Shown here: in pieces, positions 27,001-30,000 of the stretch
How the letters are laid out: each line of letters begins with the position of its first letter
How positions within the stretch are numbered: the first letter of the stretch is position 1
DNA from: Escherichia coli
GTDB taxonomy: Bacteria > Pseudomonadota > Gammaproteobacteria > Enterobacterales > Enterobacteriaceae
Length of the DNA: 64,000 nt
Assembly (NCBI RefSeq): GCF_041248615.1
Contig: NZ_CP158425.1
Reading direction: 5' to 3' (one strand)
Program-made: the position numbers

Positions 27001-30000
27001 GCAGGCTCTTCACCTCCGGGCAGGCAGACCCTGAAGAATTTAGACCCGTGGCGGTCGTGAAAGAGTGTGCAGGCTCAACGCCGGATGATCGGCTCATCTG
27101 GAGTGTGATTGAACAGCTCAACGGCGAACTGGCGGAAGGCGATAAACTATTTAAGCGACGCTGACAGATCACGGCAGCATTTATAACAGACGAACTCCAG
27201 AATAATTTAAAGCAACCATGAACATGAAAAAGCCCAAAGCTGCATTACAGAATGCCATGAAAGAAGATGTGCCAGCTGTGACACAGATTCAGATGCGATC
27301 TACGGTTTCCAGAAAGGTTCGCTATGTAAAACAGGCAAATCGAGAGGGTCTGAAATTATCTGAGTGGATGTCGCGGCATCTCGACGCTGTCTGTGATACC
27401 GCAGATGAGATTCATAAAGGCAAACGCTCAACTCCGGTTGCGCCTGGGAAGATTCCCCCAGAGGTATACCAGGTGATATACGATCAGTGCGGCGGGTTCG
27501 TGGAGTGTGATGCTAATGCCCAGGTTATCTGGGAAGCCTGCCGTAATGCCATTCTTAACGGAGACAAAGGGTAAACGGCAGGTATCGCCTGTCATTTTAC
27601 CCTTGTGAGGACAATACTGATGAACCATGAGAGCCGAACTGTATACCTGAACACGGCCATTGAGGCCCTGCTGAAAGCTGAGGCGGCTCTGAACGATCTG
27701 GCATTAGCCTATGAGCTTAAACCTGATGAAAAGGCAAGCGCATGCCATCCCAGAACCGGCACACTTTCCACTGCGTCCCAGGTAAAAAAACTCCGCCGTG
27801 TCCTTGAGAAGCAGAAGGTATGAAGGGCTGCATCAGCCAGGCCCGGATATAAATACATGCTCTGCCAGGTGAGTACCACTGCCCGGTAGCCGAATGATAA
27901 GTTTTGATTTCACGGTTGCAATTTCTCCCTCTGGCATCACTGCTCCACGATGCACCCCGATCAGCTTAGCGTCTGAAAATGAAGATGCACCGGACCTGCA
28001 TGAAGCGGAACGGTGCCCAGCTGAGTGTTTGTGGGCACAATGAACCGCAATTTCATGATGGGAATGAAAGATGGCTGGTGGCCCGCTGATATGAACGCTT
28101 ACCCTGCATAACGTTACTAACCACAATCTTTTCACTAAAAGAAAAAAGGGTTCCTCCGCTTTAGAGGAACCCTTTCAAAAGGTGCCGATGGCATACTAAT
28201 CCACACCCTGAAAAGAGGGGGGTTGCCCCCCTCTTTGTCAGCTACTTACCGGATTCGTAGGCCAGGATAGCAAATACCTCCCTTGTTCCGTCTTTCATCC
28301 GCAACTCGCAAAGCGAGTTTCGTGTGAGCCAGGTGAATATCAACAGCGTTAAACAAACTATTAATATGCACAAAACAATGGGTTGGTTCGGCATTTTCAT
28401 GGCCTTCTTCTCCTTGCATTTAAGCAGGCAAGAGGCTACGCTGTGTGTGACTAGCATACAGGGGCCTCGGGTTAATTGAAAAATTACTCGGGGCTTTCTG
28501 CTTTTACCACAGTCAAACAGTGTTACCGCTGGCTGGGGCAAAAGCCTCCAGCACCAGCGTCATTATATCACTCTGCCCTGATCAGCCAAACACCCTGCCT
28601 GCATAAATCATTGATTTATAATTTATTTGACATGAGTCACTTCCGGTTGTCGGAGACAGTCTTTTTACACTAAAGAAAAGGGTAACGGGCAGCTGCTTGG
28701 TCGGAACATACAGTGCAGTTCCTGCCCGTTTAATTTCCGGATGCAATGGTAGGATCAGGAGGCACTGGTTCCGTTGATTAGGGAAAGCTTATGTGCCTGA
28801 ATACGGCTGTATTCGAGATGGGATGGAATATTACAGATGCGCTCCAGTCGATCATGCAGCCTCGTGTAGGTCAGTCGATGAATACCGGACATTTCATCAA
28901 GTAGCCAGCGCTTGATGTAAGGGTTACAGGAAAGCCGGGCAAGATCGTCGTCATCCACTTCGTCAAAGAACCAGTACTGCTCCATCGGGACTACCTGAAA
29001 TATCCACGGCCGGGGATAGTCCCCTGTGACAACCAAAAACCATGCGAGAAAGCATAGACACAGCTCAACGATCATCAGCATCGAAAATTGCGAATAACTT
29101 AGACCAGGCACATAGGGTGAACTATCCGCAACATACCCCCTGAACAATTCCGCCACAAGGTAGCCCAATAGCGACAAGGCCAGCATCAGGGTCAGGATTA
29201 ATCCCCCATTAAACGCTACCGAAGCCTTTTGAACCCGATCAGGTGCTGTCCGGCTGCGATAGTTGGTCACTACTCTTTCTACAAGTGCCCTTATGGCAGC
29301 CTGTTCTTTACTGACATCAGCTCCGGAAAAACCGGACGGGCTTTTATTTAATTCAGTCATACCCCACTCCTGTTATGTGCTCTACTGAACAAACACGTAG
29401 ATCATACAGAGCTCACGGACGCACTCCTGCCAGATAAAGGAGGGAATTTGGCTGTAAGACGGTTAGCCAACAGTTCAGGTTATGCGTGGGATCCGGCCAG
29501 TCAGAAAGGATTCCGTTATTAACAGGCAAGGTTAAAGGCAGATGGACGTTGAAATTGTGGATGCTAAAAGGGGTATTACTCTTTTTCCTGCATAGCGGCT
29601 TTTTCAGCCCGGGTGGCCAGGCGAGCATTTCCGAAAGGTTCACGGACAAGCAGGGGCTTCTCCTTCTTCCAGCCCCTGATAGCCGTTTCTCCAAAACGAC
29701 GTGGTGCATTGCCGTTCCAGCGAGCAATCACATGATTATCATGAATTTCTATAATGACAACGGGGTGGACAATGACCGTTGTAATGGTGGTATTTCCCAT
29801 TTTGGTACGGGTTACAGACCAAACCTGCATCCCGGATTCCAGCTGGCTGATTTTCATATTATATCCTTAAGCCAACACGAACTGCGCCACAAAAATTAAT
29901 GTGGCGCAATTTACCATAAACAATAAACATCAGATACCCGTGAAGAGATTTCCCTTTATTTTAAAATTCTTCTGGAGAAAAAATGATATTTCCAGAAGAA

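Follow-up and report, generated by a model that had tools for sequence, protein, structure and literature searches.

The hok/sok (parB) locus of plasmid R1 and its IncF relatives, represented here by the R1-type reference locus L003, is arranged in the order promoter, tac element, Sok-complementary leader, leader SD/AUG, hok SD/AUG, gene for the 52-amino-acid (aa) Hok, GC stem-loop with UUUUCAGG, fbi element, and terminator hairpin. The leader AUG of this type lies at -58 and opens an out-of-frame reading frame for the 70-aa Mok (DUF5431). In R1, the GAGG and the AUG of mok (the latter at positions 116 to 118 in the R1 numbering) are functionally required, and the 3'-processed hok mRNA is protected from exoRNases by its terminal stem, whose mutation (G345/C358) abolishes the Tr-hok mRNA (PMC9841398). 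The chromosomal hokC/mokC/sokC (gef) locus of K-12 has an in-frame leader with its AUG at -57 and a stop codon common to leader and toxin gene, HokC is a different toxin sequence of 50 aa, and IS186, located 20 nucleotides (nt) downstream of hokC, replaces the fbi/terminator region. The closest diverged relatives of the locus described below are the hok loci of the IncHI1 plasmid pHCM1 (L026) and of an IncY plasmid (L027), with ~84% nucleotide identity and 83% to 85% Hok identity. Our literature searches retrieved no experimental studies on the IncHI hok locus and nothing specific on the in-frame mokC design.

In the window, i.e., the whole 64,000-nt stretch of DNA analyzed, a complete type I toxin-antitoxin locus of the hok/sok type was identified on the minus strand at 28132 to 28589, and a search of the whole window returned a single hok copy. 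The locus is 100% identical to the corresponding region of IncHI2A conjugative plasmids such as pAPEC-O1-R, and its existing annotation is Hok family toxin. It is an already known, ordinary addiction module of the hok/sok type, located on a resistance plasmid of the IncHI2 group. Judging from its sequence, the region is very probably an intact post-segregational killing module of the IncHI2 plasmid backbone. It aligns end to end with the R1-type locus from promoter to terminator, has its elements in the order given above for R1, UUUUCAGG included, and shares the identical block GCAAGGAGAAGAAGGCCATGAAA with L003. The initial annotation had placed a complete hok-type killing locus at 28140 to 28560. 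The locus itself is real, as the Rfam RF01794 match (81.1 bits) and the R1-type alignment are far beyond chance, and "complete" is borne out at the sequence level by a counterpart for each element of the R1 paradigm. The coordinates were nearly right, but the promoter reaches 28589 and the U-run of the terminator extends to ~28132 to 28137. A phage collection searched with the locus gave no match; the locus is therefore not phage-borne. Elsewhere in the window, an ALIL Rfam match at 32533, suspected at first to be odd, was rejected as a plain IS3 copy carried by the window; pAPEC-O1-R has no transposase there.

The comparisons below cover 18 hok loci, including the R1 type. When species-representative genomes were scanned for exact copies of the invariant SD/AUG block, only 20 loci were recovered, about half of them on non-enterobacterial contigs, and the plasmid collection was more useful.

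Promoter, leader, and toxin reading frames

The hok promoter (28562 to 28589, minus strand) is composed of a -35 element TTGGCT (28584 to 28589), a 16-nt spacer, and an extended -10 element TGATATAAT (28562 to 28570) and scored 10/12 with the TG in the promoter scan. The 5' end of the hok mRNA is predicted at ~28555, and the first nucleotides contain the tac element GGUGCUGGAGGC (28544 to 28555, minus strand), which is the same in the IncHI1 and IncY loci. The layout from the -10 element to this +1 (GGTATAATnnnnnn followed by GG) was found again in relatives, the predicted +1 aligns to the R1 +1 (GGCGCUUGAGGC), position 1 of the Rfam model aligns at 28556, and the published R1 numbering fits the predicted +1 when applied to L003. 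The 5' end GGUGCU is also that of K-12 hokC.

The leader (28398 to 28556, minus strand) matches the Rfam family "sok" (RF01794), whose model represents the hok-sense strand and has the hok AUG at its end, over its full length (positions 1 to 157 of 157; gathering score, 59; E = 1.9e-16). It is 155 nt long in the window locus versus 173 nt in R1/L003. Within it, a mok-like translation initiation region (TIR) at 28455 to 28468 consists of the SD sequence GAGG (28465 to 28468) and an AUG (28455 to 28457), both homologous to the SD and AUG of R1 mok in the alignment. The next four nucleotides, CUAG, conform to the YUNR pattern and lie within the Sok target.

The hok toxin gene (28242 to 28400, minus strand) has 52 codons and a TAG stop codon and is preceded by the SD sequence AAGGAG (28410 to 28415). 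Its product matches Pfam PF01848 (HOK_GEF) with an E value of 6.4e-18 (64.5 bits; cut-off, 22) and is 69% identical to R1 Hok, so that "near-canonical," the term used in the initial annotation, was somewhat generous. The pN/pS ratio of 0.19 relative to the IncHI1 homologue indicates that purifying selection acts on hok. In RefSeq, the region carries a Hok of only 39 aa, a DUF5431 pseudogene, and no Sok; the Hok starts called in public databases give products of 39 to 71 aa, the 71-aa form being the cluster representative.

The leader AUG lies at -57, in the frame of hok, and opens an open reading frame (28242 to 28457, minus strand) of 71 codons plus the stop codon that it shares with hok, encoding 19 residues followed by Hok in a mokC-type arrangement. 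This frame has its own SD sequence and is free of stop codons through the hok SD and AUG; because it is in frame with hok, translation from the leader SD/AUG is predicted to read straight into Hok. A leader that starts at -57 in the toxin frame and has an SD sequence was common to nine loci, namely, the window locus and eight others, among them K-12 mokC/hokC; the in-frame leader of the IncHI1 and IncY loci likewise has 71 codons. The R1-type Mok frame is present as a remnant of 57 codons (28246 to 28419, minus strand) that starts from an internal AUG without an SD sequence, directly preceded by a TAA. It matches DUF5431 (Pfam; E = 2.3e-18) over profile positions 14 to 70 only, is flagged as a pseudogene in RefSeq, and is probably not translated. 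The window locus thus does not have the AUG at -58 opening a DUF5431 frame of ~70 codons that characterizes the R1-type subclass, and its geometry is that of K-12 mokC/hokC (16751 to 16960 and 16751 to 16903 in the K-12 record), which by sequence places it in the mokC/hokC-like subclass.

One possible, still tentative reading of this arrangement is that ribosomes starting at the Sok-controlled leader AUG directly make a 71-aa, N-terminally extended Hok, with no coupling or re-initiation needed. Across the family, a spacing change of 1 nt (-57 versus -58) would then have flipped the leader frame repeatedly, and DUF5431 ("Mok") would be a shadow family that is conserved solely because its frame overlaps hok.

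The Sok antisense RNA

The antisense RNA, which had been left unresolved in the initial annotation, can now be placed at ~28449 to 28507 on the plus strand. The predicted Sok of ~57 to 59 nt has a 10-nt single-stranded 5' tail that spans the leader AUG, followed by a hairpin with CUUUU as its 3' tail (fold, -20.4 kcal/mol; z = -4.35). The annotated sokC of K-12 (59 nt) is colinear with it and very similar in sequence and fold (GCCUCGGGUU...ACUCGGGGCUUU), and its 5' end likewise lies 8 nt inside the leader open reading frame (mokC). The Sok architecture is alike in the 18 loci compared, and the Sok core of the IncHI1 and IncY loci is the same as that in the window.

The putative sok promoter (28414 to 28442, plus strand) has a -35 element TTGCAT (28414 to 28419), a 17-nt spacer, and a -10 element TACGCT (28437 to 28442). 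The match to the consensus is weak (3/6 in each element), and the consensus promoter scan did not flag this promoter. We rejected the missing flag as a sign that the promoter is absent, since the R1 sok promoter (TTGCGC/TATCCT) would fail the threshold too. R1/L003 has the same geometry (-35 TTGCnn, 17 nt, -10 TAnnnT), and the layout TTGCnn, 17 nt, (T/C)AnnnT was found in 18/18 loci, the R1 type included. The IncHI1 and IncY loci differ from the window locus by point differences, among them the sok -10 element, which is TACGCT in the window allele versus TACTCT in these closest sister alleles. The region therefore appears to encode a cis-encoded Sok with its own promoter and with complementarity to the leader TIR. 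According to the initial annotation, the lack of an antisense RNA or of a mok frame would have implied a defective locus; Sok could be placed, and a leader open reading frame with an SD sequence is present, so that by this standard the locus is not defective, but a frame of the R1 kind is absent, the DUF5431 frame being closed by the TAA.

The 3' hairpins and closure of the hok mRNA

Directly after the hok stop codon is a GC stem-loop (28212 to 28236, minus strand; -24.5 kcal/mol; z = -4.1), predicted to shield the processed (Tr) hok mRNA at its 3' end. The structure is present, and by analogy with the R1 stem mutants (PMC9841398) it may mark and protect the processed 3' end. In the IncY locus, the foreign sequence inserted in this hairpin is the one that K-12 carries as IS186. 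Further downstream, the fbi element CAUCGGCACC (28181 to 28190, minus strand) pairs with tac (RNAduplex, -19.2 kcal/mol). In the minimum free energy (MFE) structure of the full-length RNA, tac nt 1 to 8 and 10 pair with fbi nt 366 to 375, closing the 5' end onto fbi, whereas the 5' end of the 3'-shortened RNA is predicted to refold locally. The tac-fbi helix is 93% paired across the 18 loci and shows compensatory changes (C:G to U:A and U:A to G:C), as between GGUGCUGG/UCGGCACC in the window and GGCGCUU/AAGCGCC in R1/L003. Its covariation score was reached by 0/500 shuffles, but it reflects few independent events, the three U:A sequences being one lineage.

The spacer between the GC stem-loop and fbi (28191 to 28208, minus strand) is complementary to the leader SD/AUG region. 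In the MFE structure of the full-length RNA, nt 97 to 113 (the leader TIR) pair with nt 350 to 365, and the duplex (-27.7 kcal/mol) has a z score of -2.8 relative to shuffles. This predicted pairing, which the comparative data do not prove, reaches significance in the IncH subtype (z of about -3) but is weak in many other loci (z, -0.1 to -1.9). The anti-TIR concept is known for R1, to judge from the cited title of a 1994 article by Thisted et al.

The hok intrinsic terminator (28132 to 28176, minus strand) is formed by a 14-bp stem (28144 to 28176; -21.8 kcal/mol; z = -4.3) followed by UUUUUUCUUUU. Alignment A2 gave poor pair counts for the 3' hairpins and the Sok hairpin (58% to 72% paired), as MAFFT sets differing stems out of register, and the presence of the hairpins was therefore scored by folding each of the 18 sequences in place of column-wise counts. 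A hairpin and a U-run follow fbi in 18/18 loci, and the two 3' hairpins are present, with their order unchanged, in 18/18, whatever the neighbors.

Both the GC-rich hairpin just downstream of Hok and the second hairpin are therefore real, as initially annotated, but their description as bidirectional terminators, acting on the convergent plus-strand operon (whose genes end at 27823) as well, found no support and is improbable. The plus-strand folds are equally good (-19.0 and -23.5 kcal/mol; z about -3.5 and -4.3), the GC hairpin was among the terminator-like sites that the scan listed on each strand, and no other terminator-like plus-strand site was found by the scan between 27800 and 28217. 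However, the scan flagged the second hairpin on the minus strand only: its tail is U6CU4 on the hok strand versus CAAAAGG, with no U-tract, on the plus strand. The GC hairpin leaves just GUCAG unpaired on the plus strand and corresponds to the protective stem of R1, where the roles of these hairpins are hok intrinsic. The closest plus-strand gene, the last annotated in the convergent operon, ends ~320 nt upstream. Since both hairpins are conserved in all of the hok loci compared, whose neighbors are unrelated, we regard them as part of the hok transcript and not of the convergent operon.

Proposed mechanism, alternatives, and significance

By analogy with the R1 paradigm, a stable hok mRNA would be transcribed leftwards from ~28555 and end at the 28144 to 28176 hairpin and its U-run. 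Pairing of the 5' tac with fbi, and of the adjacent 3' spacer with the leader SD/AUG, would close the full-length RNA, which would therefore be neither translated nor bound by Sok. Slow 3'-exonucleolytic processing would halt at the GC stem-loop and remove fbi, so that the 5' region would refold and expose the leader SD/AUG. In plasmid-bearing cells, Sok would bind this region by its single-stranded 5' tail and the duplex would be destroyed, as in R1 with its RNase III cleavage. In plasmid-free segregants, Sok, if as unstable as that of R1, would decay, the leader open reading frame would be translated, and Hok, a small membrane toxin, would kill the cell, a sequence of events expected to stabilize the plasmid.

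The locus, which has lost the canonical out-of-frame mok and has a weak sok promoter, might for these reasons instead be a decaying or silent relic that looks complete but in which the toxin is unexpressed or Sok unneeded. We consider this very unlikely. The DUF5431 frame shut by a TAA and flagged as a pseudogene and the 3/6 match of the sok -10 TACGCT are in line with decay, as are the insertions of IS150 or other elements that most sister plasmids tolerate in the locus and the IS association of the K-12 chromosomal hok loci, exemplified by IS186 near hokC. However, the leader SD and AUG are kept at the homologous position with an uninterrupted 71-codon frame, the design of mokC/hokC and of eight other diverged loci, and in R1 it is translation up to the hok initiation region that matters and not the Mok peptide (PMC9841398). 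In addition, the IncHI1/IncHI2 divergence has left the tac-fbi pairing, the Sok architecture, the GC stem, and the terminator in place, with compensatory changes, hok has the low pN/pS ratio given above, and the R1 sok promoter is itself hardly nearer to the consensus (3/6 in the -35 and 4/6 in the -10 element).

There is likewise only a slight chance that the module, though functional, is selected on IncHI2 plasmids mainly for phage exclusion (abortive infection) or inter-plasmid competition and not for segregational stability. Reduced propagation of phage T4 has been reported for hok/sok of R1. Other maintenance systems occur in the plasmid family (parAB and hipAB, cited for an IncHI2 plasmid, and relBE in sister plasmids), and the locus is often lost by IS insertion with plasmid success apparently undiminished. 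The sequence, however, fits stability and phage or competition roles alike, and a stable closed mRNA with an antisense RNA is the design shown to give post-segregational killing in R1 (PMC9841398).

In most sister plasmids, the locus is interrupted by IS150 or by a relBE-ended insertion, whereas no IS150 ends were found in the window. Approximately 60% of the plasmid records with the locus have an interrupted copy, and the locus is therefore clearly dispensable; the intact copy described here represents a minority state, which is relevant where the presence of hok/sok serves as a stability marker. By analogy with R1, the killing module probably contributes to the stable inheritance of IncHI2 multidrug resistance plasmids. 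A PCR-based survey of addiction systems (PMC4855149) gave "no" system where HI2 was the only plasmid type, and R1-derived primers presumably miss the hok variant of the window type.

These results leave the understanding of how hok/sok works unchanged, and their practical value lies in annotation, given the inconsistent RefSeq calls (39-aa Hok, Mok "pseudogene," no Sok), and in epidemiology. Should the 71-aa product prove to be the active toxin or a pro-toxin, the locus would represent a mechanistically simpler variant of hok control, one that occurs on IncHI1, IncHI2, and IncY plasmids and escapes R1-based PCR typing.

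A hok/sok module on an IncHI2 plasmid

The minus-strand locus at window positions 28132 to 28589 appears to be an intact copy of a known, already annotated hok/sok-type module. The initial annotation had noted a complete hok locus here, and this is borne out by a 52-codon ORF (28242 to 28400, minus strand) matching Pfam HOK_GEF (E = 6.4e-18) and by a match to the Rfam model RF01794 ("sok") at 28398 to 28556 on the minus strand (81.1 bits; gathering score, 59). The RF01794 alignment runs on the hok-sense strand from the 5' end of the hok mRNA to the hok AUG, and the model is thus in effect a hok leader model that includes the Sok-complementary stretch. 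Window Hok is 69% identical to R1 Hok, and its gene is the only hok copy in the window. Over 751 nt, the segment matches many conjugative IncHI2A/MOBH plasmids (~200 to 300 kb) of E. coli and Salmonella, such as pAPEC-O1-R (NC_009838.1), at 100% identity, and the phages searched with it gave no matches. Elsewhere, the window carries an IS3 copy (32252 to 33465, plus strand; orfA, 32252 to 32578; orfB, 32575 to 33465) with an Rfam ALIL frameshift pseudoknot (32533 to 32649; 120 bits). pAPEC-O1-R has DUF3085 and DUF957 genes annotated at that position and no IS3 copy, so the window plasmid differs from it at 32252 to 33465.

An IncF locus (L003) encoding a Hok 100% identical to that of R1 was used as a stand-in for R1; its numbering matches that published for R1 (mok AUG, 116 to 118), and the window locus can be aligned to it all the way from promoter to terminator. 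On the minus strand, the hok promoter consists of a -35 element, TTGGCT (28584 to 28589), and an extended -10 element, TGATATAAT (28562 to 28570), with the predicted mRNA start at about 28555. It is followed by tac (GGUGCUGGAGGC; 28544 to 28555), the leader Shine-Dalgarno (SD) sequence GAGG (28465 to 28468) and AUG (28455 to 28457), the hok SD sequence AAGGAG with its AUG (28398 to 28415), and the hok stop codon TAG (28242 to 28244). Downstream are a GC stem-loop (28212 to 28236), a spacer complementary to the leader initiation region (28191 to 28208), fbi (CAUCGGCACC; 28181 to 28190), and a 14-bp hairpin (28144 to 28176) followed by UUUUUUCUUUU. Upstream of the module, an inverted repeat at 28684 to 28731 (minus strand; AACGGGCAG ... 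CTGCCCGTT, then ACCCTTTTCTTT) lies directly downstream of a 201-amino-acid gene (28755 to 29360). This repeat, missed by the terminator scan because its loop is long, may be the terminator of that gene and insulate the hok promoter from read-through.

Leader frame, Sok, and mRNA folding

The distance from the leader AUG to the hok AUG is 58 nt in R1-type loci, where the leader ORF (DUF5431; 70 to 71 codons) is out of frame with hok. In the window, this distance is 57 nt, and the homologous SD sequence and AUG open an ORF of 71 codons in the hok frame. Exactly this design is found in K-12 mokC/hokC, the two genes of which share a stop codon, and in-frame leaders are also present in IncHI2 (Enterobacter), IncHI1 (pHCM1), IncY, Phytobacter, Franconibacter, Citrobacter freundii, and Leclercia loci. 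The window locus belongs to this mokC/hokC-like subclass and not to the R1 out-of-frame subclass. In the DUF5431 frame, it has an ORF of just 57 codons (profile positions 14 to 70), starting at an internal AUG that directly follows a TAA codon and has no SD sequence; the conservation of DUF5431 here is probably a mere by-product of the overlap with hok. In R1, what is needed is mok translation as far as the hok initiation region, and the Mok peptide is dispensable (PMC9841398); nothing about an in-frame leader thus conflicts with function.

The Sok RNA, left open in the initial annotation, is now accounted for at the sequence level. Annotated K-12 sokC is 59 nt long, with its 5' end 8 nt inside mokC; by this geometry, the window Sok is predicted to start at 28449 and to end near 28505 to 28507 (plus strand). 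K-12 sokC and the window Sok are nearly colinear in sequence (GACUAGCAUACAGGGGCCUCGGGUUAAUUGAAAAAUUACUCGGGGCUUUCUGCUUUU against GUUCAGCAUAUAGGAGGCCUCGGGUUGAUGG...ACUCGGGGCUUUUCUCUAU). In the predicted fold of the window Sok (-20.4 kcal/mol; z = -4.35; equaled by 0 of 200 shuffles), a hairpin stands between a single-stranded 5' tail of 10 nt and a U-rich tail. The predicted plus-strand sok promoter comprises TTGCAT (-35; 28414 to 28419), a 17-nt spacer, and TACGCT (-10; 28437 to 28442); the R1 type has TTGCGC/TATCCT in the same layout. All 18 aligned hok loci share the arrangement TTGCnn/17 nt/(T/C)AnnnT and the Sok architecture.

For the full-length RNA, the MFE structure pairs tac with fbi (nt 1 to 8 and 10 with nt 366 to 375) and the leader SD/AUG region (nt 97 to 113) with nt 350 to 365. 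For an RNA truncated behind the GC stem-loop, local pairing of the 5' end is predicted instead, the same switch as has been described in R1 (PMC9841398). Across the 18 loci, 93% of tac-fbi helix cells are paired. The helix has double compensatory changes at two positions, one from C:G to U:A and one from U:A to G:C, and these set the IncH subtype apart, although the independent covariation events are few because the three U:A sequences represent one lineage. The covariation score of the whole structure was reached by 0 of 500 shuffles, and slid controls were clearly below it, except at +1. The duplex between leader and 3' spacer is strong in the window (-27.7 kcal/mol; z = -2.8); in many other loci, it does not reach significance.

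The two 3' hairpins

The initial annotation had further read the two hairpins as bidirectional terminators, and this part of the reading was not supported. Both are stable on either strand when folded. However, the terminator scan called the second hairpin for the minus strand alone; in the plus-strand orientation, the Us are taken up by the stem and the tail is CAAAAGG. Folding of each sequence recovered both hairpins in 18 of 18 loci, in constant order and flanking fbi, with differing stem sequences, and they thus belong to the hok transcription unit, irrespective of adjoining genes. The nearest annotated plus-strand gene stops about 320 nt short of them, at 27823; a secondary role in halting convergent transcription is conceivable, without specific support. 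By analogy with R1, the best-supported reading of the GC stem-loop is as the counterpart of the terminal stem of the processed Tr-hok mRNA; disruption of that stem in R1 (G345A, C358A) abolishes Tr-hok, presumably via 3'-5' exoRNases (PMC9841398).

The window GC hairpin (GGGGGGCAACCCCCC) is intact. The IncY copy (NZ_CP081726.1) and K-12 hokC (locus positions 1 to 232) have identical foreign sequence that starts inside the corresponding stem-loop directly 3' of hok and is annotated in K-12 as IS186A; IS186 thus seems to target the G-run/C-run hairpin repeatedly. The approximately 310 nt from the last plus-strand gene to the hok terminator (27824 to 28136) contain no annotated gene or Rfam hit; the sole ORF there is an unannotated 100-codon GTG ORF (27833 to 28135, minus strand).

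Annotation, selection, and broken copies

RefSeq/PGAP records a 39-amino-acid Hok (28242 to 28361) and a DUF5431 "pseudogene" at the locus. Public databases start the same gene so as to give 39, 41, 45, 46, 52, 56, 61, or 71 amino acids, with the 71-amino-acid form as the cluster representative. Other sources inconsistently name products of 41 to 71 amino acids (28242 to 28457) HokB, Stm, or cell killing protein, and none of the database records examined for the locus annotates Sok. In the table of a PCR survey of addiction systems (PMC4855149), HI2-only plasmids are scored as having no system and hok-sok is scored only where an FII or FIB replicon is also present; these table entries suggest to us that R1-derived primers miss the diverged IncHI2 hok variant.

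In favor of a functional module, hok is under purifying selection between the window and the IncHI1 copy (pN/pS, 0.19), and every regulatory element is kept despite divergence at about 16% of nucleotides, with compensatory changes. On the other side, our literature search found no experimental data on IncHI hok, and the module is evidently dispensable. Among 1,418 plasmid records matching the 201-nt core, the core is continuous in only 557. In a sample of 40 records evenly spaced over these matches, the exact window allele is intact in 3 and broken at window position ~28473 in 12. The break in pEF45-1 consists of an IS150 copy with a 3-bp ACC duplication (28470 to 28472), placed 1 nt before the leader SD sequence, so that the hok leader and Sok are both interrupted. 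Many IncHI2 sister plasmids have the window allele split by IS150 in this way (NZ_CP086605.1 locus, 1059 to 2502; window 28470 to 28473). Some IncHI2 (Enterobacter, pE1532-MCR) and IncHI1B plasmids have all sequence upstream of the hok SD sequence replaced (window ~28412 to 28414; loci from NZ_CP114574.1, 2417 to 3173, and NZ_CP145535.1, 1 to 572). There, about 70 nt separate the end of relBE from the hok AUG downstream, and hok keeps its SD sequence but lacks its own promoter, tac, leader ORF, and Sok. In these copies, hok could possibly be cotranscribed with relBE.
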